Shown here: positions 1,725 to 49,200 of the stretch, in pieces | How the letters are laid out: every line of letters starts with the position of its first letter | How positions within the stretch are numbered: the stretch's first letter is position 1 | NCBI GenBank assembly: GCA_002633005.1 | Contig: NMRA01000135.1 | Location: 828,649 to 892,648, forward strand | DNA length: 64,000 bases | Source of the DNA: Phoronis australis | Lineage: Eukaryota; Animalia; Phoronida | Direction of reading: 5' to 3' | Notes under the pieces: model-generated | The model's database searches: none | The model's input: the letters and a program-made list of their open reading frames with translations, nothing else | Told to the model about the DNA's origin: nothing | Position numbers and translations under genes: made by a program

Positions 1725-4700
1725 CACACGCATTTACGTGCTTGATTTACGCGCTTTCTCGGCTCCCTGTTTATGGCAGGGGTGAACGATGGGTGATTGC
1801 CTTCAAGGTCTCGGTTACAGCTGGTCAACGGTTGACCCTTCTTGACCAAATGACCCACTGGGTCAGTTTATAGTTCCTTTGATTATCACTAGGTGGTGTC
1901 AGGGACGAAACAGTTCTTTGTTTGTTTATTAATCACTCACCAGGTGGTCACGTCCGTCTAGTCGTAGAACTGGGTCACCTGGAACTGCCGTAATTCCGTC
2001 AAAGAAAGGTTAAAGCAGCCTCATTGTGGGCCACAGTACATTATAATATGTTACAATTAAGCAATAGAAATACTTGTATATGATGGTAGTTACTATCTCA
2101 TAATTATCATTACATTTGACATAAGATCGGAAGACTGAAACATGAATCAAGAGTAAGTACTTCAATAAATAAATGAAATAATTAGCCTAAATCTAACACC
2201 TTCGTAAAAACAAAATTGTCAAAAGCAAAAATGATCGCTTGACATTAGTTGATTTGGATGTCCGGCGATATTTCAAGATGCTAGGATAATCCCGAAATGT
2301 CAAGATTTTTCGTATGGCTACAGATGCAGACACTTACAAACTTGGATAAACCTGCCACAATTATTAAACAGTTAAATTCAAGTTTTGTTACATTTGATTA
2401 CCGTTTTTTGATTTACTTTTCTCGGAGTTTAATGGGGCATTCTTGCGCCTAGTGGCTAATTGTTTATTGATTGAGAGAAGGAAGTTCGCGCGATTTCGAA
2501 AGAACGTGAATGGAGCATCACCTGTCGAGATGTTGTCGAAATTTAGCCAGAATTTAAAAGGATTCTAGTCGAAAAGGAGTAGACATGTAGTCTCAGTTTT
2601 GTTCACCGAAACTTCGTCTAATTTCGTCGATGTCCAGCTTATTTTGAAAGCTACTATTACTTCTTAGTGTACTTAATTTATTGAATTTGAGCCAACGAAC
2701 GAAGTTTGTAAATGTATGGTATCATTGGGTAAATTCTTGATAAGTAGCGTACATCTACTGTAAAAAGGCAATAGTCGTATATAACGCGACCGTATTTTGA
2801 GAACCAGTTTGATGCCCGTTATTCAGTAAAGAAAATTAGTTCTCAAAATTCGACCATTACCCTGTAAAACAATACTCAAAATGTCGGAGTTGGAAAAACG
2901 AAGACTCACAAATAATGGCCGATTTACGAACTTATGCACCTCAAGATTGTGAGATTTTGACAGCAGAAAACAATTTATTGTTGCGGAATTTTTTCGGACA
3001 TTTTGAGACAAATTCAAGTGCCAGAGCAAACTTCCTAATTTCTATTTTTAGATAGTAAAACGGTCTTTCCGAAACATTACCGGTGAACTATTTTAAACCA
3101 TCTCTTTTGTTACTCACTGGGTAGGAAAAAACAAAAAATATACAATGCTAGGAAATTCCCCAGGTACTGATTACGGAATTAAGTATTTTGTAATTTTATC
3201 AATTTCTTGGAGCCAGGAGCAGGAAACGGAAGGTACAAGGCAGGTACTTTTAAGTTTAGATTAGTTGTTGAACAAACTGTCTTATTTCAATAGAATGGTT
3301 TTGCAGTGTTTGACATTTATTATTCGTCAAATTGAATCATCACAAAGTTTCGATCTAATGCATTTGCATTTAACCTTTAATTTCTCGGTGGAATAAATAA
3401 ATTACCTCGGTGGTAAAAAAGCTTCTTTTGCCTTATTTTGTGAATGAGGAACACTGATGGCGGGTCGGGATTTAGAATTGTCTCGAGAGGACAGTGCCCA
3501 CTGTAATTTTCAGAGGATATGAGAATTGCTTTGCCGTCATCGTTTTTTATTGTTTTTTTTTCGCTCGGAATGGAACCCATTGGAAGTAAGTTCGTCTGCG
3601 CTGGTATATTTTTGACTTAGTGGAAAATTTCCATTATTCACTGAACTCAACCATCTGTGGTTTTAACTAAATATTTTTTGACGTCAAGATCCATTTCTCA
3701 AACATGAATCAGTGAGAAAAGGTCTAATTTTGCTAGACCGCAGATTAGGGAACAGTTTCCTTACATACAAAAATATTCATAGAAATTCAAATATCTTTGC
3801 TGGTGATGCAGTACTTTACGACCTTGAAAATCGGAGCACACTCGTGTTACAGGTCAATTCTAAAGGTCGTCACCCCAGATGGCCGGCAGTTCTCGCTTTA
3901 AGTGTAAAATCTTTGAGCAGCTGTAGCACTTTCTGGCAATGAACGGCAAACAAAGAATCAGGCAATTTGATAGACATCCGTTTAGTGAACGGGGTTATGA
4001 TTGATTGTGGTGGCGGTGGTGGTGGTTGTCAAACAATTAGTTGTATTAAAAATGCTTCACATTGATAGAGCTCTATCCCGCATTCAAGTATTTGTGACTT
4101 TAAACAATGCGGTCATCGTTTATGGCAGCATATACCCATGTAAATTTCATAGTTCAGCGACGGAACAGTCAGTTATTTAAAAATGAATGTCGAGGAGTAT
4201 ATGAAAATAGGTCTACTCATCAAAGAAGCGTATTCCATGTTCTTTTCGTATTGTCGAAACTACTGTTACCTACGTTATCGATTTTATATATGTACAAAAT
4301 TTGTGACTTACTTAAAAAGACTAAATACTAAATAATACTACATCGATGGTAATTTGTACTTTTTCAGAGGGTTTTATATTGTTTTCTAAATAATCTCATT
4401 TAAAAAACTTTTAGTTCAGCGGTCATATTTGCTTTTGAACCTAGAGATAATAATAGACGTGCGATGTGATATTTGTACTGATAAGAATAATTGTTGTTTG
4501 ATTATATCAGTCCTGGGTAGAGTTCAGTAACGTTAGGACGTCGCTAAAATCAAGACTTCGCGAGATTACTTGAGATATTGTCGTGTGTATTTCAAATGCG
4601 AATACCTCATCTTGGCTAGATTATTCTAGTCGCGAGACAGCTACTGAACTTTACCCTGTTATCGCTGTTGCCATGATGGAAACGACGAGAACAGGCCTAA

Positions 4701-12300: not shown

Positions 12301-15214
12301 CAGCAAATGGGAAGTTTCACCAGTGCAGTCTCGTTAAACTTCTTATCTGCCTTCTTAACGCCGTCCCAAAACCAGAAGGTAGATATTTCTGCCTGCTTAC
12401 ATTGGGATGGCTAGTACACTCCATCGATTGATGCGACTGTCTTGTGGTTAGGAATCTTTTTTGTTGCCCATGGGGATCCCACGTGCTGGCCATAATATTA
12501 ACATTTACCATGACAATTACTCGTGAGATGGCAATCATCCCGACACTATTGCAAAGGTTTAACACGGCGGCTCATCTGCCTTTCGATCAGATGCCGACGA
12601 TCTCTCTGTAGCTGCCTTCTTATAAAAAAATCAAATCTGAACGCGGTCTGAAACTGGCCAAAAAGAATTCCCTCGCGGTGAAGTCTTAATATTATTGCAC
12701 GATTACCGTCACTGTAGTTAGGATGACTTTAAGAAGAGCTTAGAAATATGTACAAGCTGTTGGTAATACGAAATTTCTCACAAAAGTGGAAACGGTCTAC
12801 TCCAAACAGACTCTGTCGTTGAATTAACGGTCCATGCCAGAGGCTTTTCTATTGTGCTGCTAAGACCACTTAATCGGGTTTGGAAGGCAAATGTCAATGG
12901 CTATTTCTCGTTAAGCAGTCAACAGCTGACAAGTTTCTGAAGCCTCACTTAAGGATTTTTCTTAATCTATTGACTTCGCAGTTTATCTCGCGCGAATAGT
13001 TTCAATTACGTTTGAATTACTTCCTTACACAAGTGCAATACTTTCAGTTTCAAACAGCTACACTCTCATCTTGCTGTTTCGACTTAAATGCTGTTCTTGT
13101 TTTCATCTAACAAGCTGTTTTCTCACACGTAAATCTGCTTACTGAAATATTTTGGAAGTGAAAAATACGTTTGGAAAACATGTTCTAGTCCATGTGTGTA
13201 TGTACGTACATTACTCAGTTCTATATCAGGTGCTTCCCTCAAGAAAAAGCGGGGGTATGGTCAGCGGGTATACCAGCAAATTTTTACTTTACAAGGACAC
13301 ACTCCTGGCTTGATTCGAGACGTTCATAGCTTCACACCGCCGATTTGGATTTTTGTAAATCAGTGCCCGGGGTCCAATTTTGTACTCGCAATCAAGTTCG
13401 AAATTATTTTTCATAAATTTCTTTTTGCATTGTACTTTCGATTTGAAGATAAGAGTCTATTACTATTTGATCGTGTGAATGTCTGCCTAGCCGGAACTTC
13501 ATTTTCTTGGACTAAATCCTGGAATCAGAACTCAAAATGTCAAGCTTTCATTCGAGTTTGTAGCTCAAATCTAGAGGTCACCAAGCGCAAACTTGCAAAA
13601 TGTGTAATGTACTAGAGCACGCAACCATAAACGCTTACCTGGAGTTCGGACAAAAGCAGACCGAAACGAAAACATTAAAAATGATTTCGGTTTCGAAATT
13701 CCATTTCTGAACTCGAATTCGAACTGTTCGTTTTAACATTTTCTCAAAATAAATGTTTTCCGTTTTGTACACGAACACATTAGGCCTATGAGTTATATGC
13801 AAATGAGATTAATTATAAAATAATCCAGACCCATTTGAGCTGACTCCCAACACTCAAGCAATATTTCCAAGTTCAGTTGAATAAAAAATTTCCAGTTAAA
13901 GCTTGAGTTCGTAGCTTGAATTTCGGGTCCACGCTCAAGGACAAACATTTTGGACAATGTCACGAACAGGAAGGACCGATTGGTCAAGTTGCCCAGATCC
14001 GGTTTTTAATCGACTCTCGGCTTTAGATTTTTTCTGGCTTGCCAGATACTGCCTCCAAAATGTCAGAGTTTTGTCTTCTGCAAAATTACAGTAATCAGAC
14101 TGCCGGTCATCTAAAAATTTCGCCTCATTAATTTGCGCTTTCGATAATTATCCAGGAGTTGTACTCTTCCCTGCGCGTTATTTGTTCACACACTTTAACT
14201 CCACTATACAGTGGCACATCTTATTCTAAACAAGTTGTCGACATGCTAATGATTTCTCGAGTGTCGAATAAGACTTAAGTCAAAGAAATCAAACACGTTT
14301 GTCAATGATGTGGGTTAGTTAATTAGTGTCTCTAACTTTTGTCAAGACGCTTTCGAGAGTAGCGTTCCAGTAATTAGTTGTAGAATGAATAACTGTGCAT
14401 TGCCACACGAATAAAAGGAAAGCTCAGCTTTACCTTAAATCTGAAAAAATAGAAAATCTTGTCATATCCGTGTAAATTCGTATGATCGGGAATACTTTAA
14501 CAAGTAGTTTTGTGTAGTCGCCATAGTTATTATAATAAAAGGTACAAAGGTAACCAGACAGTCGTGAAGGATACATGTACGTGTACTCGCTAAATGTTCA
14601 GTAACTGGTACATACGTTTTTTTACCAGGATTGTCGTTGTTTTTGTTGTTAAGTAATATATAAGGACACATTATGTGACAACCGTTTTATGTTAAAAAGC
14701 AAAATGAAATATCTAGCCTTTTAAGATAAAGTGAAAGTTTCAGTTGTTCAACGAGACTAAGTTATAGAGAATGTATCAACATTTTAAAGCTAAATGTTAA
14801 ACTTAAACTTGTCTCAGTTGGCAAGCCCGTAATGACGTGATCTACTATATATTGTAATTGCTTAACTTACCAAACGCAGACGACATTGGCAAACATAAGC
14901 TTTTATCAGTAAAAGTTAAATACAAAATGAAAACTATTCGTTTGCAGGGCTACATATGTTTAGTTGTCTTTTTGTTTGCTCTAAAAGGATAAAGTCAGCT
15001 TCGGGCAGTGGTCTGCATAACAAATCTACAGAAAACACTGCAGTTGTACATGTAAGTATCGACACAATACAGTTAAACACATAACATCAATTAAGCACTT
15101 AGAATATAATAGTTATAAAGTTCACAGGAAAATTATAAACATTCCTATTACGTTAAGGGACACATAAAACTGAATAATTATAAGGAGCAAGCAGGGCGCC
15201 TCTGACTTACCCAT
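6098..15214 (-). CDS. dsf: NR2E-family nuclear receptor, dissatisfaction (dsf)-like. Exons 15211-15214, 10352-10432, 9677-9838, 8683-8882, 7842-8039, 6716-6962, 6098-6360; 1155 nt, ~384 aa
   Basis: Spliced translation [94 protein letters not shown]... has a C4 DBD with the NR2E P-box CDGCSG, plus GDRLLDIPC and [10 protein letters not shown], which I recall from Drosophila dsf. LBD motifs: W..HVPSF..L...[40 protein letters not shown]. All introns are GT-AG with matching phases. Confidence 0.92.
6716..6962 (-). CDS. dsf: dsf-like exon 6: LBD middle
   Basis: ttttag|CTT ACT CTG CTA GAA...CCA G|gtaagt encodes [19 protein letters not shown]...[13 protein letters not shown]. Confidence 0.93.
7842..8039 (-). 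CDS. dsf: dsf-like exon 5: LBD helix 3-4
   Basis: ttgcag|GAA AAT CCA...GAC CAG|gtaaat encodes [32 protein letters not shown]. Confidence 0.92.
8683..8882 (-). CDS. dsf: dsf-like exon 4: T-box and hinge
   Basis: cccag|CT GTG CAA CAC...TTC CAG|gtagga encodes [12 protein letters not shown]...AEHFQ (ORF 8665-8880). Confidence 0.9.
9677..9838 (-). CDS. dsf: dsf-like exon 3: P-box end and second zinc finger
   Basis: cgcag|GG TGT TCC GGT TTC...AAA GAT G|gtgagg encodes [11 protein letters not shown]...[27 protein letters not shown]. Confidence 0.95.
10352..10432 (-). CDS. dsf: dsf-like exon 2: first zinc finger
   Basis: ttccatag|GT GAT CGA CTG...TGT GAC G|gtaagc encodes [26 protein letters not shown]. 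Too short for the ORF track. Confidence 0.95.
13365..13740. mobile_element. Diverged relative of the 23219 MITE in dsf intron 1
   Basis: Shares GCCCGGGGTCCAATTTTGTACTCG and TTCGAGTTTGTAGC...AAACTTG blocks with it. Right boundary uncertain. Confidence 0.5.
15211..15214 (-). CDS. dsf: dsf-like candidate first coding exon (ATG G only)
   Basis: Minus strand reads accataATGG|gtaagt, a consensus donor. Phase 1 matches the next exon (G|GT GAT CGA). A TATA box lies ~85 nt upstream. Confidence 0.65.
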
Positions 15215-15380: not shown

Positions 15381-16396
15381 TTTAAGGCCTGATAGTTTTT
15401 CAATGTAACTTAATATTGACACCAAAGACATTTATCTTTTTCATCAGCCGCTCTCCAGAATAGTTGCCGCAAAAGGCAGACGACGAGAGTAGGCAGATTT
15501 TCTACCAAAATGAGACCCGAGGAGCCCAGCACAGCTCATGGTGGATGAGTATCTCATCGCTTTTCACAGTTGTGGGTGTGCATATGGACAAGCGTCGTCC
15601 CACAAAGTTGCCGATGCACGCGCACATTAGATGGAGTAACTGAAAAGGAGACCAGTTTTGTTTCAGAATCAAAGGCGGATACAGTTTTTTACGACAAAAG
15701 GAGATCCAAGTAAAACGACAGGTTTCTGAAGAAAATTCTACATCAGACACAATGAGTAGAAAACCGGCAATGAAGTTTAGTGTCGTGATTTCTGCGTCCA
15801 GCGGCCTATACTCATGAGCAAACAATATAAATTTTCTACTGATTTTCCCGTAGTTTTATTTGTACTTTGGCTAGTGATCCAGTCTAAATTTGTGCATGAT
15901 GATCAGTAGATTCGAGCTACACACGCGGAAAAAACGCAAGATTCCTAGTTCAGACTCGAAATCGTGCATTTAATGCTGGGGACACTAAGTGCAAAATAAG
16001 CCGATCCGTGTAAACCATGATGTATTCAAGCAGAGAATAATGGATACTTATCAAGAGTTCACAGAAAGTAAAACAGAAAAAGATAAAAATAATTTCGAGT
16101 TTTATTTCCGTTGTAAGGTTTACTGAGACCCCAGGTTCAGCCGGTAATTTAACGTTCCCTGTCACCTGTCAACAAAGGCCCAAGTCCACAAATTTTACCC
16201 AAATCTTTCCTGAAAATATCAGTCCATTTTGAGCATGTATGTATGGTATTTAACGTCGTTTCGGAAACTCTGTAGAAAAGGACCTTATGACATTAACCGT
16301 TTCAATCGATAAAACAATGCTTCTGTTTTGCGGAGTTACTATATGGACCAAATTTTACAGTGGTCAAATTTCTGCAGCTTTCACAGTGGAGAATAA

Positions 16397-19500: not shown

Positions 19501-20372
19501 ATGTTCACAAATACAAACAAACCACATTCACTTGGCCTACATATAATACCTGGCCTACCCTTAGATTTTAATATTTTGGGAGTGCAAATTTGCCGCGGCC
19601 GCAGTCTAACTGTTCAACGCCACCTAAGCATTTTTGGGGTTTCATAACGACTGAACGATCGCACTTCTAATTCCATAATGGAAAAACGCAGTAACTCGTA
19701 TAATTTGAGGCTCCTGTCACTGGCTGAAACTAGCTGATAGTTGCTGGACTCAAACTTGACGAATAATTTTGTACGTTACACATCCAAACATTTATCCGGG
19801 TACAGTCGCCATTGTTTTGTTTACATCAAAGGTCAAAGGTCACACTTTCCATATAAGGAAAATGTAGGACAAAAATCGAAGAAAGTTCACTGGTCGTTTT
19901 TTGTAATTTAAAACTAAAATAAAATTGCTTTGAATTCAATAGAAATTCAAAATCTTTACGAACAAATCGTAAAAATGCCTGGTCACAGGTTGAATTAAGT
20001 TTCAGTAGCAGACAACCTTTTTGAATAGGGTTGTTAAAAAAACCTCGACTCCCACACGCCACAACCCCTTCGACCCACGACCCCCTCGACCAACGGCCCA
20101 CAACCCCTCAACCCAGTCTACACAAGCTCGACCGGATCTGAACATAGCACAAGTGCTGACTTGCAAGACCAATGAGTCGAGATGTGAGCTCAGCTGGCTT
20201 TTTTTGCAATTAAGAGAGTCGATTCGGCAAGTTTGAAAGCCAAAAACAGAAAAAAAAACAACGCGATCAAATCAAAGACCTACCAACCTTACAAATGTCG
20301 TTCCCGGCATAGTATAATCGTCTCGTCTGCTCTTCAGTGAATGACAGATTCAAGTTATAAGAAGTAAGTTAT

Positions 20373-20677
20373 TGTAGCAAATGTCGAGGTCAGTCTCGGC
20401 TGTGGCGTCTCTATGTTGTGATGTCCTTTTCGTGGCAATGTTGGTCATGGCCTGGTGCGACATCTGACGCCAGAAGAGCCCAGCCGAGGTCACCCTGCTA
20501 TCATGTGACCGTCACCCTTCAAGACCACGTGACAAGATCTTCTGGCTCTTCTGGAGTTCGCTGCCGTCCTGTACGGACGTAATGTGAGTATACTCCGGAC
20601 TTTGCTCTTGCACCGCGTTAATAGGCCCGAACCTGTGTGTCTGCTTTTGGCCAGCCGACCCCTTTTTTATTACAACA
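20373..20677 (+). repeat. 5' LTR
   Basis: TGTAGCAAATGTCGA...TTATTACAACA. By eye it differs from the 3' copy by about 11 substitutions and 3 single-base indels. Confidence 0.95.
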
Positions 20678-20679
20678 TT

Positions 20680-20693
20680 TGGCGTAGTCGGCA
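20680..20693 (+). promoter_or_regulatory. Primer-binding site complementary to the tRNA-Ser 3' end
   Basis: TGGCGTAGTCGGCA, 2 nt after the 5' LTR, is the reverse complement of the eukaryotic tRNA-Ser end ...TGCCGACTACGCCA. Confidence 0.88.
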
Positions 20694-21006
20694 CCTATTT
20701 CCCGGTGTTGGAGCAGCGTGCGTGTCTTTCGGTGGTGGCGGGAAATAAGTTTTCATAACTTGTTTTCTCGTGCCCATTTTGACAGCCACGTGCGTCACTG
20801 CTTTTGCAGTGCCTGAGTTCAGGTTTACTAGAATTTCAAGCGTTTGTCGTTAGTTTAGTGTCCGTTTTTGTAAATAGGTATTTATTATTGGTATAATAGT
20901 ATATAGTCTGTATTAATTATTTTGTTAGAGTTTTGAACCTTTCTAGGAATTCTAGAATAGGTCACGTGACCACGTGGTTTTCCTAAGACGAAGCCCCGTG
21001 TGTGTT

Positions 21007-22411
21007 ATGTCTTTCCAAGACAGGGTTCCGGTAAACTTCTGTCTTTCCCAAGAGTTATTCAAGCTCTCGGGCATGACAGAAGATATTGCCCAATCCATTC
21101 TGGCTTTTCGGCAAACTCAGCCGATAACCCCAGATAATATTAACCACATCCATTCCGGATGGAGGTTGACGAGGAGTGCTATTTCTGGCATTGATTTCAC
21201 CCAGTATGGTGATGTTCAGTCCAGAGATATCTCTCCTCTGGGTAGTCCTGTACGTACCCGTTTGCCCCAAGACTTAAGTGGTATTGCCCAGGTCTGTGAC
21301 AGGTTAAACAAGTCCCCTGTTAAGAAGGAAGCACTCTTCTTCGCCTGTGCCTGCCCAGAGTTCTGGTAGCCGAACGGTTGGTCCGTCTACCCACACCCGT
21401 CCCTATAGTTTAAGGCCAAATGCCCCGTCTAAGCTAGTGTTTCTAAGGGAAAAAGGCAAATGGGACGACTTTTTTGGAAATTTCAGCGCTTGGCTAAGGA
21501 CAACTTATGGTCCGAAGACAAGTGCGTCTCGGAGTTAGGAATGTGTTTGGACGATGTGGCCTTGCATTTCTTCCTTAACTTCATGAGAACGAACCCAGAC
21601 TCTGGTTTCGATGACGTGGCTGCACACATGTCAGAACATTTTTCTTCGACTGACTGCACCCAGGTCCTACGCGTTGAATTCCAATACGCCGAGCAGAAGC
21701 CGGGGGAATCTATTGAGAACTGGGCGTGTAGGTTAAACAGGTTGTTTTTAAAAGCCTTCCCGAACCCTTCGTTTCTCCCTTGGGTTACGCGATAAGGTTG
21801 TAGGTACGCAGGTGATGAACTCATCCCCTTTGTCCCTAGCTGAGGCAGAGTCTAAAGCTGCGTGGTTCGCAACGACCCAGCGATTGATGGCAAATCAAAA
21901 CCGTCGGTCTGTTTGGTTTGAGGGCTCACCATCGCGCAAAGACGAAGCTTCTGTCAACCTGCTTTCACAGAACAAAAAACCTGCACTTAAATTCAGTCCA
22001 ATAGCATCCTCTGCTTCAAACTCTGCGGTTGAGTCTAGGCTGCATGCTTTAGAGTCTCAGATGGCTAAGGTCAACTCTGAAATAGGAGGTCTTAAAGAAG
22101 ACAATGCCCTTATACATCGAGAAGTTAAAAGTATGTCCCAGACTATGAGTTCGAATTTTAGAGGCTTTGCCTCAGACTTGTCGAGGGTATTAAAATTGTT
22201 GGCTTCTAATCCAAAACCATCTAGATCCCCTCCACTATCTAGGTCCCCCCAAGCTTCCCCACAGAGACCTTCAGTTATGTGTTTTAAGTGTGGTAAGTTT
22301 GGTCACTACCAGTCTGTGTGCCGTAGCCCGCAGTCTGCTAGAATTCGTCGTACATCCTTTGGGGATAAGTCCGATGATTTAAACGAGTTGGCGCTGGACG
22401 ATCAGGTCTAA
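21007..22411 (+). pseudogene. gag: gag, frameshifted: HhH-like N-terminus, capsid-like domain, coiled coil, CCHC zinc knuckle
   Basis: ORFs 20974, 21347, 21460 and 21812 join across ~3 frameshifts. Motifs: KWDDF/FWKFQRLAKDNLWSEDK, FQYAEQKPGESIENWACRL, RFSLGLRDK, and CFKCGKFGHYQSVC at 22280-22321. Confidence 0.85.
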
Positions 22412-22442
22412 CTCCAGTCCAGTCTCCTGATACCAATTGTAG

Positions 22443-24424
22443 GGTATCCTCATCAAACGCCTATCGACTAATCTGTTAGACTGTTTTAGGGCAGGGAGTT
22501 TGTCCACTTCTTCTCGAGGTATTTCTGTGCACGATGAGTGTCAGGGGAGAGGCCGACCTGTCTTGGCTAGATCTTGTGATGTAGTTCATGATTTGGTTGA
22601 CTTGTCTACTGACATTCCTTGTACTCGGAATTCCCTTGGTGATATGGAGTGTCCAGCCTCCCTAAGTTCTGTGCTCACTCAGAATAGTCCGATTGAGTTA
22701 CCCATTACTGATACTGATGTGATTAATACCCCAGTGTTAGTTCCGGTTAATTCGATAGATAAGTCTGAGTTGGGTGGAAAAGCTGTTTCTAGTACCCAGG
22801 TTGTTGCTAATTCTGAGTCATTAGATTTTGTGCACACCCTGGTTCCGGATCCCATTTCAGGGGGGTCAAAGGTGCCCCACAACCCTGTCGTTATGCAGGA
22901 TCCACCTCCTGAGTTTGTAGATGCCCCTGTGGACACTATTAATATTCAGGAGGCGTCTTCTGGTAACACCCTACACCAACAGGCTGGCTGTCTGCTTCAC
23001 TGGAGGCAGAAGGTCACCCTTCCACAAAGGGTGAGGGATGCTGGTTCGCCATACCCTCGGATGTCGTGTGTGGCAAAAGTCCGCCAGCCACCTGGCCTGC
23101 CCCTAAAGGGTCGACGTTCGTCTGGGGCTTCGCCGTCCGCGTCCAAAGCTAAATCAGGACCACCTCCTGATTTGGCTGTAGATGCCCACTTCCATCTGGA
23201 TCGCTTGTCGGCATCCTGGGCCCGGTCTCCAATCTTTTTACTCGAAATGGAACTCGAAATTAGGTTTGACATTTTCTACTCTACTTTTGGGCGAACTCAA
23301 CATAAGTGTCTATTATTCTATGCTCGAGTACACAATAACTTACGTAGATAATTTATTGCCCTTACTTCACAGTTTGTAAACCCAATATTAAAGCAGTAAG
23401 TTCGAGTTTGAACTCGAAATTTCGAGTTTTTACTCGAGTTTGTAGCACGAATATAAGGGTCTTCAAGGGCAAACTTGAACTAGAAACTCCTATGCATAAA
23501 CTATAATGTATTCGAGCACAATCTGATAACCAATTATCTTAAGTTCGCACAAAAGGAGCAGAGAAATTGCCAAAAATAGTTTCGAGTTCGTTTCGAGTAC
23601 AAAGATTAGAGACTGGGCCCAGGGCTCAGCGTCATATCACTGAGAATAGGATGCTGACAATCGATCAGATGCTCAGCACCCAGCTGCCACGGGTTTCTCA
23701 AAAACCTGTGCGGTTGGTTGGTGGGATTGCAGTTTTCTGCGATGTGGAAAACTGGAAGTACGTTGAAGCTTCCTGTTTCCCACATGGCTGGAAGGCTGTG
23801 GTGGGCATCCACCCCAAACGGGTTGGAACAACGAATCCCGGTGTTCTGGAGCGTCTCCCCCAGCTACTAAAGGAGCCCTTTGTGGCTGGCTTAGGCGAGG
23901 TCGGTCTGGAGGCCCGGGAGGACTTGGCCATCCAAAAAGAAGCTTTGGAGGAGAAGGTGCGAATCTTTGCGGAGGTTCGGGCCAGCTCCCCCAGCTTCAA
24001 AAACAAAGTCGTGGTGATCCACCTTCGTGGTTCCTCCGACAATCCACGTTTCCTGGAGGGACAAGACTTCGTCTTTGATCTCCTGAAGCGCCACTGTGAT
24101 GCAAACTTGGGTTTGCATCTCCATTGTTTTGGAGGTGCGCCCGAGGATGTACTCCGGTGGACGGGGTTCTTTAGAAACTGCCACTTCGGCTTCGCCGGTC
24201 ATGTGCGGCCGTTTCTTAAGTTCCAAAATAAGGGATTACAAGAGGTTCCGATGAATCGACTCCTCCTGGAGTCTGATTCACCGCACCTCGCCATTGGGCC
24301 TTGCCCAATGGCGCTCCAATACCTGGGGGAAGTAGCTATGGAGGTGGCGCAGCGTTCTCGTCGTCCGCTGCGTGACATCCTGGCTGTTTCCACCAGGAAT
24401 GCCAGGCGGCTTTACCATCTCTAA
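22443..24424 (+). pseudogene. Second ORF: Ser/Pro-rich linker plus TatD-family metal-dependent nuclease, interrupted by a MITE
   Basis: Motifs DAHFHLD (~23181), VGIHP, GLGEVGLE, VVIHLR, HLHCF, FGF, RLLLESDSP and NARRLY. Deleting 23219-23622 fuses ORF 22500 and ORF 23567 in frame (...LSASW-AQRHITENR...). Confidence 0.9.
23219..23619. mobile_element. ~400-bp MITE (PIF/Harbinger or Nuwa-like, CWG site) inserted in TatD
   Basis: TIRs GGCCCGGTCTCCAATCTTTTTACTCGAAA and TTTCGAGTACAAAGATTAGAGACTGGGCC, with imperfect inversion extending ~120 bp. Flanks are CTG and CAG. It is an AT-rich island in a GC-rich ORF. Confidence 0.88.
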
Positions 24425-25295
24425 CAAATTGTTAGAGGTGGTTCAGCATCCTGGTGTGCCTGGGTCATAACCTATGCCCCAGGTTTTCTCCTAGTCCATT
24501 GGGTAACTGCCCGTTATTATAAACTCTGAGGCTGACTACGGTCTCTGGGTTTGTGCCTTACCCTTGGTCTTAGGAGAATTGTGATGTCCGTATTAAGTAG
24601 TATAATTAGTTAAGTGGCGTACTGGTCCATTATTTTTATATAGTAGTGTTATTCGTTAAAACTATATAGTATATTTTTGTTATAAGTTTTCATACTGTAT
24701 ATATAGTCTATTTATATATTCAAGACTATACTTTCTATAGTATTATGTATTAGTTGTTATAGTTTATTTTTGTATATTAAGTTAAGTTTTCTATATAGTA
24801 TATGTATGTTATGAGAGACTATATCATTTTATATCTCAATGCATCACTACTAAAGTATAATGAATACTCATTTTATGGCCAGTATGCTTTTCGTTGTTCA
24901 GTTTTTTAGTTTTTTTTTTTTAAATGTATATATTCTCTCGCCAGGTCATCACCAACAATCAGAGTGTTGTCATAGCATAGTCCAGAAATTCTATGCTCCC
25001 TGGTACTGGTATTAGTGGAGCATATTTTTCTTTTTTTTCTTTTTTAGTCATGTTCGACTACTATAATGGATATATGCTATGACTGTGTGTCTCATTAGTA
25101 TTTGTTTTTTTTTGGTAGGGGGGGGGAATAGTTAGATTAAATTTTAACCAGTAATTCTTACTTTACAAGGTCACTCCTCATCATGTTAGTTATAGGGTTT
25201 AAGGTCTTGTCACTGTTGTCTTAGGTCAAGGGTTTATGTTTAGATGTTGGGAATGACGTTCGCCATTTGCTATAAGGGCTCCACTCCTTTTCTTT

Positions 25296-25309
25296 AGGTA
25301 AGGGAGGAA
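25296..25309 (+). promoter_or_regulatory. Polypurine tract
   Basis: AGGTAAGGGAGGAA lies immediately 5' of the 3' LTR. Confidence 0.85.
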
Positions 25310-25611
25310 TGTAGCAAATGTCGACGTCAGTCTCTGCTGTGGCGTCTCTATGTTGTGATGTGCTTTTCGTGACAATGTTGGCCTTGGCCTGGTGCGACAT
25401 CTGACGCCAGAAGAGCCCAGCCGAGTTCACCCTGCTATCATGTGACCGTCACCCTTCAAGACCACGTGACAAGATCTTCTGGCTCTTCTGGAGTTCGCTG
25501 CCGTCCTGTACGGACGTAATGTGAGTATACTCCGGACTTTTCTCTTGCACCGCGTTAATAGGCCCGAACCTGTGTGCCTGTTTTAGCCAGCGACCTCTTT
25601 TTATTACAACA
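25310..25611 (+). repeat. 3' LTR
   Basis: Direct repeat of 20373-20677, preceded by a purine tract. Confidence 0.95.
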
Positions 25612-26368
25612 TTATTATTTTATTTCCACAAACCCGGTCCTCGATGAGAGTTACCAATATTAAAACTGAGCGTGTTAGCTGAATGATCGGAATATATAAA
25701 ATCATTAATTATATTAGACTGACATCTTGAAGACATAACAATGTCAACTAGCCAATAGCCTAGTCTACTTTGAGCTTTTAATTGTTTATCTCTCCACGAG
25801 TACTTCCTTATCCCAGGGTTTCTCATCCTCCATACATCTATTAAACTAAAATTTCTACAGAAATTATGAATATTGTCAATAAGATTTTTCTTATGGAGGA
25901 CGTCAGTTAGCCCAAGTTTGTCCAAGTCAGTGAGTGGGCAGCACAGAGGACATTACATAATTGGAGGTCACTCAATTCACTTTCAAGTCTAGACAGGAAG
26001 ATCAGTTGATTTCTTAAATCGTTTGAGAAATATACATTAACAAAAACGAAATCTTCCTCATAGAGTTTACATGAAACAATATTGAAGCCACCATTTTCAT
26101 CGTTTTTTACCACAATATTCCTAATGTTTTGCGAAATATTAGAATCAAATAATATAGTGGTTCCTCTACTATGTTTTGTTCCAAAGCTTGAAAAATTAAG
26201 ACCATTCCACTCTTTTTGCAGAATATGTTCAACTTCTGGACTAAAATACGTTTCCTGTAAATAAACAATGTTGAATTTGCTATGTGATATGAAATTCAAT
26301 AAACGTTTCCACTTAATATCTGAATTTAATCCCCGGACATTTAAGGATACCAGTTTTAAATTATTCAT
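25612..26368 (-). pseudogene. LINE ORF2 apurinic endonuclease domain (Tx1/L1 clade), truncated, no RT
   Basis: SLNVRGL, LQETY, VNVY, LIDVWR..NP, SRLGYW, SDHSA, RGPGLWK*NN. The reading continues for a few codons (NLLL) left of the LTR insertion at ~20368. Confidence 0.9.
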
Positions 26369-26625
26369 CTTCACAACAATAGAGAACCTCAATGCCCACC
26401 CCCCAAGAGAACTAATACAAAATATGCATCAAGTGATATCACTCCCAAATAATAACGATTACCTATCTCATTCACACACTTACCATTCACAACCGGGGGA
26501 AGGGGGGAAACGAACAACAAAGAAACAAAAATGTTCAGTTCCATATGATCGTCAATCAATCTCCGGAAAGCTTTTCTGGGTTCGATTCATTTGTCACACA
26601 ACAATGTCGCGGGGCGTAATACTGC

Positions 26626-27419
26626 TTATATGTCGTCTAAGGAATTAATTCTCTTGATGGCGCCGCTCTTTAACTTCACAAATATTTTGCCATTGGTGCT
26701 CCACGAACTGTCCACTTGTTCATGCTTGAAGGATTGTTTCAACAAGGAATAGTTTGTCGCAGTAAGATCTTCCAAAATGAATGTTCCGGTGTCTTTGGTT
26801 TTCCTCTTTGTGTAGCACTTTCGACTTGGTTTTATACGACATAAATTTGACGATGATTGGGCGCGGTTTAATCAAGGCCGATGAATGTCTGGTTGTTCTA
26901 CTATCCTTCTTTCCGACTCGGTGCACTTTGTCTATATCTTTGTCAATAACACCAATTTCCAAGATATTCTTGCAAAATTCCAACACCAGCTGTTCACAGT
27001 TTTCTTCATCATTCTCCTCTATCCCATATACCCGAACTGAAGTCGAACGCGAATACTGCTCCAGTGAATTGATCTTTTCTCTCAACATCGTATTTTCTTG
27101 TTGTAAAGCAACAATGTCTTGTTTGAAATATTGGAGCTCCTCTTTAATTGCCTGTCGTATGGAAGTGTTGAGTTTTCTCTCCAGTTGTTCCATGCGTTCA
27201 TCAAAGTTGGTAACCGTGCCCGTTGCCATGGCTGCGTGATGACTTATTGTTAGACTATTATTTGTCCACCAGTAGCTTTCCTGAGGGTTTCTCTTTAGAC
27301 TTTCATTGGTGTTATATAATCACCTGTCAGGGGATTTGGATGTGACACTTCATGGTCAAATCAAGACTGAAAAGAGTTTGTTCTTCACCACCAACTCCTA
27401 CCTTATCTACTGAATCCAT
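26626..27419 (-). pseudogene. LINE ORF1 (coiled coil, RRM-type, C-terminal domain), Tx1/L1-like
   Basis: LEQYSRSTSVRVYGIEE, IDKVHRVG, PRPIIVKF, then a frameshift to ISEDLT...WSTNGKIFVK. Confidence 0.85.
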
Positions 27420-37329: not shown

Positions 37330-37726
37330 GGCTCGGGTCTAATCTTTACACTCGAAATTGTTCTTGACATTTTCCGCCCTGCACTTGTGCGAACTCAAGC
37401 TACATGTAAGTGGCACTTATTCTGTATTCGGGTATCACTACAGTTTATTTGTATAGCTGACTTGTCACAGCTCGCTTTTGAATTAGAAATTTAAAGTTTT
37501 TACTCGAAATATCATGATCTCTCTTTTGTAACTCGACTGTAGGACTGGCCAGTCCTAGAGTTCTTTGCTCGAATCTTTAATCTAGTGGTCATCAAGTGCG
37601 AACGTGACTGTACTAGACACTAATCTGAGCAAAGGATGCCCTTGATCATAGAATAATACTCGGACATTTATCGTACAAAAGTATAACGGAAAATTCAAGT
37701 TCGAGTTCAGAGATCAGATGCCGGGC
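37330..37726. mobile_element. Diverged relative of the 23219 MITE
   Basis: GGCTCGGGTCTAATCTTTACACTCGAAATT...TTCGAGTTCAGAGATCAGATGCCGGGC ends, plus a shared GCGAACTCAA block. Confidence 0.55.
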
Positions 37727-46995: not shown

Positions 46996-47253
46996 GTGAT
47001 GTGTGTACACGTGATGTGAGTACACGTGATGTGTGTACACGTGATGTGTTTACACGTGATGTGAGTACGCGTGATGAGTGTACACGTGATGTGAATACAC
47101 GTGATGTGTTTACACGTGATGTGTTTACACGTGATGTGTGTCCACGTGATGTGTACACGTGATGTGTGTACACGTGATGTGTGTACACGTGATGTGTGTA
47201 CACGTGATGTGTGTACACGTGATGTGTGTACACGTGATGTGTGTATACGTGAT
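46996..47253. repeat. 15-bp minisatellite (GTGATGTGTGTACAC) x ~17
   Basis: Directly visible tandem array. Confidence 0.97.
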
Positions 47254-48330: not shown

Positions 48331-49075
48331 CAGTATCTTACTATCCGCGATACATTGATGGAGGGGACTGTTTTGTAAGTATTCGCGAGGCCTGTTCTCC
48401 CAATCTGAAACCTATCGGCACCCACATACCATTAATCAAACTAGACAATGACAATGGGGCAAACCAACTTGAAAAGCAGTGTTGCCACTCGAGGGGTCGC
48501 CCAATATTTTAGATATTGCAGTAAATATTTCTTGAAATTTCTCCATATGCTATATGGGTAATCACCAATCCAGCCCTCTATACTCTAGAAACTTTATGAG
48601 GCGGTTCCTACCCAAGTTGACTCGTACCCAGGCCATGTACCACATTTTATTTATAGATAATGGCAACATTGGGTCAATGTACGTGACATGAAATGATTGC
48701 TTCCATTTCAAGAATCGCCTTAAAAAAACTGTTTTGGAACACATGTGTACATTGACATGGGTCCGAGTTGACTTGGCCCTTGAGTACGAAAATGAAGTGA
48801 CCTGTTCTATAACCTAAAAAATTACCCCAGCCCCGAGGTGAGAAAGTCTTAATTACAAAATTGCGATTCTTTCATCCTCCGTACACTTCACAGTCGATTA
48901 TTCCAAAGAGGCTCTCATTCATTCCCTTTCATACATTTCAGTGTTTCCCCTGCGTGCAAACTTCTGGGCTGCCCCCCACGATCCTTTTTGGCCCCGTCAC
49001 TCGTAAATCATTCTCAAATTGACCGCCACACACCTAATCGTGACCGGAAAACTTCACCGCCACACAAAAATCTCT

Positions 49076-49200
49076 AGTAAAAATGATAGCTAGTCAAAAT
49101 GATCCGCCAGTAAAAATGATCGCTAGTGAAAATGATCGCTAGTGAAAATGATCGCTCGTAAATTGATCGCTAGTAAAATGAATCGCAAGTAAAAATGAAT
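49076..49200. repeat. 16-bp tandem repeat (TAGTRAAAATGATCGC) x ~7
   Basis: Directly visible degenerate tandem array. Confidence 0.9.

Follow-up and report, generated by a model that had tools for sequence, protein, structure and literature searches.

A 64,000-nucleotide stretch of the Phoronis australis genome (contig NMRA01000135.1, forward-strand positions 828,649 to 892,648; hereafter the window) contains a decayed long terminal repeat (LTR) retrotransposon that encodes Gag and a TatD nuclease domain but no pol. We consider it likely that this element belongs to a small nonautonomous family, which would have arisen from a Gypsy lineage with TatD as its third open reading frame (ORF3) through an internal deletion and would be copied by the enzymes of a helper. 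The gag of the element is kin to that of complete Gypsy relatives, the TTTAAAC motif of their gag/pol overlap has been retained, and its TatD falls inside the clade of their ORF3 proteins; it is therefore most likely a pol-deletion derivative. Judged by the sequences of the complete relatives, TatD is the normal third ORF of this lineage.

Structure of the Element

An initial annotation of the window had described an LTR retrotransposon with LTRs approximately 95% identical, a TTAT target-site duplication (TSD), a primer-binding site, and a polypurine tract, and each of these signals was recovered where it had been placed (Table 1). The two LTRs are identical at 291 of 302 aligned bases with three internal gaps (Kimura two-parameter distance 0.037), and BLASTN aligned them at 95.4% over 305. 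The TTAT duplication is weak evidence if taken alone because the flanks are AT-rich. The primer site, starting at 20680, is presumably that of tRNA-Ser.

Table 1. Features of the gag and TatD element, in positions of the window
Feature	Position	Strand	Remarks
Left TSD	20369..20372	+	TTAT
5′ LTR	20373..20677	+	TGTAG...CA
Primer-binding site	20680..20693	+	Starts with TGG, two bases past 5′ LTR
Broken gag	21008..22411	+	HHH-like N-terminal part, capsid-like part, coiled coil, zinc knuckle
Slippery site and pol-like −1 frame	22378..22478	+	TTTAAAC, then ~33 codons ending in a stop
Linker	22443..23217	+	Open low-complexity frame running into HxH; no pol match
TatD HxH motif	23181-23204	+	At end of linker frame
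Inverted-repeat element (MITE-like)	23218..23621	.	AT-rich, 404 bases, inserted in TatD
Main TatD part	23622..24424	+	GIHP, GEVG, IHLR, LHCF, and LESD motifs
3′ untranslated region	24425..25299	+	AT-rich, GC 0.34
Polypurine tract	25300..25309	+	Directly before 3′ LTR
3′ LTR	25310..25611	+	TG..CA ends
Right TSD	25612..25615	+	TTAT

The gag and TatD ORF that had been reported between the LTRs are both present as homologous domains, but gag is broken into at least four stop-free pieces in shifting frames and TatD is split by a 404-base element. Matches in the window to Retrotrans_gag, PNMA, zf-CCHC, and HHH_3 were all below the Pfam cutoff. A gag profile nevertheless matched at 21013-21222, 21445-21765, and 21767-22387, and tblastn detected similarity to the gag of three complete TatD elements, L104 (E 5e-15), L144, and L121, with E values from 5e-15 to 7e-11. 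The HHH_3/PNMA/zf-CCHC pattern is common to the window gag and the gags of complete relatives, and by sequence the window gag is of the Gypsy type, broken but homologous. We also observed that gag of the lineage begins with a helix-hairpin-helix domain, HHH_3-like and mostly below the cutoff, in L104, L144, L121, L135, and the window (21013-21222). The TTTAAAC motif was found in the gag/pol overlap of all five complete relatives examined and is kept in the window, where the approximately 33 codons that follow resemble by eye the start of pol. A stem-loop of −20.5 kcal/mol, computed with no shuffle control, lies 3′ of the window motif.

TatD_DNase (PF01026) was detected with an E value of 2.6e-24 and 86 bits against a cutoff of 27, and all metal ligands of a class II TatD enzyme (HxH, Glu, His, His, and Asp) are present. 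The closest solved structures are those of a putative TatD-related DNase and YcfH (E about 8e-8). A miniature inverted-repeat transposable element (MITE)–like sequence, self-inverted at 68% over 424 bases, cuts HxH off from the remainder of the domain, so that TatD is not one ORF; with gag also in pieces, the window copy is dead in its present form. The inserted sequence recurs elsewhere in the window as partial, diverged copies (13528-13595, 15878-16108, and 37350-37507). A 71-base imperfect palindrome at 24393-24463 spans the TatD stop codon.

As had been claimed from the sequence, no protease, reverse transcriptase (RT), RNase H, or integrase could be found: the pol profile of the relatives was empty in all six frames of the interior, and Pfam likewise detected no pol domain there. 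The element is not an autonomous Ty3/Gypsy member, as the protease-RT-RNase H-integrase pol of its relatives is absent. Gag and TatD are separated by an open, low-complexity frame of about 770 bases, and the window element is without the two N-terminal ORF3 domains of the complete relatives. One stretch of the linker (~22980-23033, containing CLLHWR) aligned, at a nonsignificant E value of 0.29, with the last part of the N-terminal domain of ORF3. The junction of the pol/ORF3 deletion would lie inside the linker. Terminal-repeat retrotransposons in miniature (TRIM) and large retrotransposon derivatives (LARD) are defined by having no coding capacity between the LTRs, and we rejected both identities as gag and TatD are encoded there.

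TatD as the Third ORF of Complete Gypsy Elements

Relatives of the window TatD were found in bivalves and in metagenomes associated with animals; they are long proteins that align at 28-40% identity and near-full coverage. A family-specific TatD pattern yielded 84 metagenome loci, of which 58 had TatD scores of at least 50 bits and were kept; the 26 scoring below 50 bits were dropped. No recognizable gag or pol lies upstream in 38 of the 58, most of which are too short. Among the 20 loci with a recognizable upstream part, 18 have the end of integrase directly upstream of TatD on the same strand, and pol was seen in 14 of the 15 loci having at least 3 kb upstream of TatD. The order in complete elements is gag, pol (protease-RT-RNase H-integrase-PHD), and TatD in ORF3. 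Because the gag and pol profiles were partly built from these metagenome loci, Pfam served as the independent check. By Pfam, all five pol domains are contained in a single ORF, with a TatD-family ORF next to it, in L091, L104, L109, and L119, and the same domains occur in split ORFs, again with a TatD-family ORF next, in L144, L121, L135, and L095; the TatD of L121 is interrupted and was recognized in a separate search instead of by Pfam. Downstream of TatD in the relatives is a purine tract followed by an LTR that begins with TGTAG, as in the window, and their primer sites after the LTR read TGGCG or TGGTG. The window element thus resembles the Ty3/Gypsy relatives L091, L104, L109, and L119 in LTR start, type of primer site, gag domains, frameshift site, and TatD clade.

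These relatives alter the proposal that TatD had taken the place of pol, as TatD is the normal ORF3 downstream of integrase (18/20 loci). They also rule out a one-off insertion of TatD into this copy, the same TatD being the ORF3 of complete elements. Two other pol-deleted gag and TatD derivatives were found, L111 and L157, each with a different breakpoint. L157 retains half a protease and is a close relative of the pol-bearing L126, and L111 is 94% identical to L147 over 1.5 kb.

The ORF3 proteins contain more than TatD. In a profile search, among the 150 best clusters formed at 50% identity, TatD was present in all 150 representatives and an ORF3 N-terminal domain in 102, including 85 of the 88 representatives of at least 450 residues. 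This domain, seen in L162, L144, L104, and others upstream of TatD, comprises 150 residues with invariant Cys, His, and His and a P-x-N-S-P-A-x-L-x-H-W-R-like motif. Its fold was predicted with confidence (predicted local distance difference test 89), and it had no Foldseek match at E 0.001 among viral and PDB structures and no sequence match in PDB, Pfam, or any named Atlas family. The 150 representatives include no Gag-TatD or Pol-TatD fusion; they gave no pol match and two weak zinc-knuckle matches. In L099, an integrase tail, PHD, the ORF3 N-terminal domain, and TatD share one stop-free ORF (1868-4567, minus strand), which shows that linkage of TatD to the polyprotein can occur in the lineage. 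This ORF is nearly identical to P0005, a protein of Mytilus edulis whose annotation reads TatD-like hydrolase. Several bivalve gene models named TatD-like or TATDN2 are element ORFs, and these would inflate apparent expansions of host TatD. In another gene model, P0275, an N-terminal part that is sulfatase-like by eye is joined to an element TatD, probably a misannotation.

A search with a general TatD alignment returned 7 loci in viral sequences (24-28% identity) and 80 in genomes (23-33% identity). Of the latter, L009 alone was taken further as an element, and it is likely a host-contaminant contig within a bacterial metagenome-assembled genome; 12 others were used as the bacterial outgroup. 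The family-specific pattern matched two loci in viral sequences, both with weak TatD scores.

Sister Copies in Sequencing Reads

Reads from four of eight sequencing runs, including X1 and X4, were analyzed, with the reservation that read depth is not copy number. All 30 bins of the element contained reads in all four runs. The joint 23217-23622, free of the 404-base insertion, was also present in all four (depth 790 in X1, depth 43 in X4, and 8 and 6 RNA reads). The inserted element itself reached a depth of 3-5e5 in X1 and is of very high copy in the genome. A gap-free, unbranched 514-base contig of depth 485 covers 22451-22964, which is most of the region that must hold the deletion junction. 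Two X4 contigs that differ from the window by 6% and 14% overlap one stretch of TatD, and diverged copies therefore exist; sister contigs also carry small indels relative to the window where they cover gag. Among the loose ends listed, none was at an LTR terminus. We take this to mean that the genome has several, perhaps up to twenty, copies, many of them without pol.

Of the read differences listed, 11 fall in the TatD reading frame, and 8 of these are silent compared with an expectation of 24-30% (p 0.001-0.004). All six differences that vary among reads are silent, as are two of the five private to the window, a split that fits selection on the family together with neutral decay of the window copy.

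Several observations weigh against the proposed pol-less family and its origin. The depth of the linker in X1 (493-696) is about half that of gag (776-1384) and TatD (976-1279), so that some of the sisters could still bear pol. In the same run the LINE-like flank to the right reaches ~550, as deep as the linker, and the baseline is therefore unsure. None of the contigs listed runs unbroken from gag into TatD. Both family and helper are putative, as are independent insertions of the sisters with TSDs of their own. The 11 TatD differences are a small sample drawn from 40 of 975 rows, and the silent ones could stem from pol-bearing copies. RNA depth was low (about 1-25) with first-mate direction opposite in gag and TatD, and the RNA reads are no proof of a sense TatD mRNA. 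Finally, in the tree described below, the branch of the window TatD is long (1.56) and its best identity is 39%, so that its placement within the clade is unsure.

The same depth profile bears on the strongest rival, in which pol was lost at or shortly before this insertion, leaving a one-off dead deletion copy, and the reads taken for sisters stem from complete copies or from alleles of this locus. Halved X1 linker depth, a flank as deep as the linker, and the lack, among the contigs listed, of one spanning the whole interior would all follow from such an event, and single deletions do occur, as the closeness of L157 to pol-bearing L126 illustrates. We regard it as unlikely, however, because the 514-base contig is unbranched at a depth of 485, compared with mostly about 22-85 for X1 joints and variants found in one or two contigs, and because the linker in X4 is as deep as gag (51-61 vs. 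30-74). The linker is, moreover, unlike any pol, which suggests long evolution without pol.

Probable Deletion, Proposed Mobilization in Trans, and Possible Roles of TatD

The simplest history suggested by the sequences is one internal deletion from early pol to the late part of the ORF3 N-terminal region, by which an ancestor would have lost all sequence between the beginning of pol and the last residues of the N-terminal domain of ORF3. RNA of the resulting element would have been packaged with its own Gag and with helper Gag-Pol, and reverse transcription and integration would have been performed in trans by helper enzymes. The window copy would then have aged, as its LTRs are 3.7% apart, while gag broke and the MITE entered TatD. 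A nonautonomous Gag and TatD family with a Gypsy partner, as first proposed, is retained to the extent that a pol-less element would need a helper and probably exists in several copies, but the acquisition of TatD by replacement of pol is not. The refuting case named alongside it, in which the element is just a deletion derivative of pol-bearing copies with TatD as cargo, is close to the outcome; the one difference is that copies without pol appear to have multiplied.

TatD may be translated from a spliced message, from an internal ATG (22644 or later), or as a Gag fusion via the frameshift site; a simple motif scan of the element gave no clear splice donor/acceptor pair. By analogy with characterized enzymes, there is a slightly less than even chance that it acts as a two-metal class II 3′-5′ exonuclease and apurinic/apyrimidinic (AP) endonuclease that trims or clears single-stranded and damaged cDNA by-products of reverse transcription, and this would help any RNA sharing its particle or cell. 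A somewhat weaker candidate is a role in hiding cDNA from host sensing or in attacking competing elements, and passive carriage in the pol-less family appears rather unlikely. If the pol-less family keeps the nuclease under selection, TatD would benefit the RNA carrying it and would not merely be a Pol accessory.

A more radical scheme places TatD truly in the position of Pol: ribosomes slipping at TTTAAAC would produce a Gag-TatD fusion in particles shared with the helper. A parasite of a retrotransposon would in that case bring an active nuclease, kept by selection, into the particle, where it would shape cDNA ends or destroy competing cDNA. We think this improbable, as the −1 frame in the window stops after ~33 codons, overlapping the linker frame, and does not continue into a fusion; the scheme would require a different sequence at this place in sister copies.

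Phylogeny of the Element TatD

To place the window TatD, a quick maximum-likelihood tree was constructed from 74 rows, comprising 32 element, 25 host, and 17 bacterial sequences, with TATDN1 and TATDN3 absent. The window TatD grouped among 31 element rows with a Shimodaira–Hasegawa-like approximate likelihood ratio (SH-aLRT) of 98, and one branch (SH-aLRT 96) split all 32 element rows from the host and bacterial rows. A comparison with host and bacterial TatD had been suggested by the initial annotation, and within this sampling the element clade stands apart from TATDN2 and bacterial TatD. The tree names no donor for this clade. A retrocopy of host TATDN2 was rejected because in this quick tree the window TatD does not nest among animal TATDN2 and lies outside the 23 animal TATDN2-like rows.

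The same tree leaves very little probability for the idea that LTR-mediated retroposition recently put a TatD gene of host or bacterial origin where pol had been. Some family members are named as host genes, for example, "putative deoxyribonuclease TATDN2" in Mytilus californianus, yet the window TatD groups with element ORF3s, apart from the TATDN2-like rows (SH-aLRT 98) and bacterial TatD, and in L099, the nearly identical counterpart of M. edulis P0005 shares its ORF with an integrase tail and PHD. Assembly of unrelated repeats into a chimera, for which the many repeats of the window, its N gap near 57.9-58.4 kb, and best DNA runs containing only 28-29% of sampled words could be cited, is just as remote given paired LTRs with a TSD, the ordered PBS-gag-TatD-PPT arrangement, and depth in 30/30 bins and 4/4 runs.

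Relation to Known Elements and Enzymes

Nonenvelope third genes of LTR retrotransposons are known, and the TatD lineage provides a large test set for their functions. In a study of bdelloid rotifers (PMC5408684), the ORF3 of the LTR retrotransposons Juno and Vesta is described as a DEDDy 3′-5′ exonuclease with intact catalytic residues and a function not demonstrated. The TatD elements resemble these in being Gypsy-like with an enzyme in the ORF3 position, and differ in that the ORF3 nuclease of the complete relatives is a TIM-barrel TatD joined to an extra N-terminal domain and in that the window element is pol-less. The same study describes TelKA2n, a nonautonomous rotifer family in which ORF3 persists while most of pol is gone, and reports spliced messages for other ORF3s. 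The window element, which has no pol and keeps the enzyme part of ORF3, is similar in this, but the ORF3 of TelKA2n is env-like and the end of its gag is missing, whereas the window gag reaches its end and the frameshift site is kept. TatD is not mentioned in PMC5408684 or in PMC13524379, and no description of TatD as an LTR-retrotransposon ORF3 was found in the literature searched, a scope outside of which lie Repbase, Dfam, subscription journals, and supplements. Both an enzyme in ORF3 and a pol-less family that keeps ORF3 thus have precedent, while the TatD-ORF3 Gypsy lineage is large and apparently undescribed.

TatD enzymes are two-metal 3′-5′ exonucleases whose main substrate is single-stranded DNA and which act as AP endonucleases on double-stranded DNA, and the class II (HxH) nucleases include TATDN2, TATDN3, YcfH, and YjjV, according to a study that defines their motifs (PMC10085689). 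The window TatD is like these in having HxH, Glu, two further His, and Asp, from which activity is predicted, and unlike the host and bacterial class II enzymes it belongs to a separate element-borne clade with about 35-40% identity even within the clade.

Other Features of the Window

Adjoining the 3′ LTR on the minus strand is a decayed LINE (long interspersed nuclear element)–like 5′ region (25620-27319) containing an ORF with a weak Transposase_22 match (E 0.09); pieces of it resemble the start of an AP endonuclease by eye, with no Pfam support. Tandem arrays of 15-base and 16-base units are found at 46996-47253 and 49070-49198.

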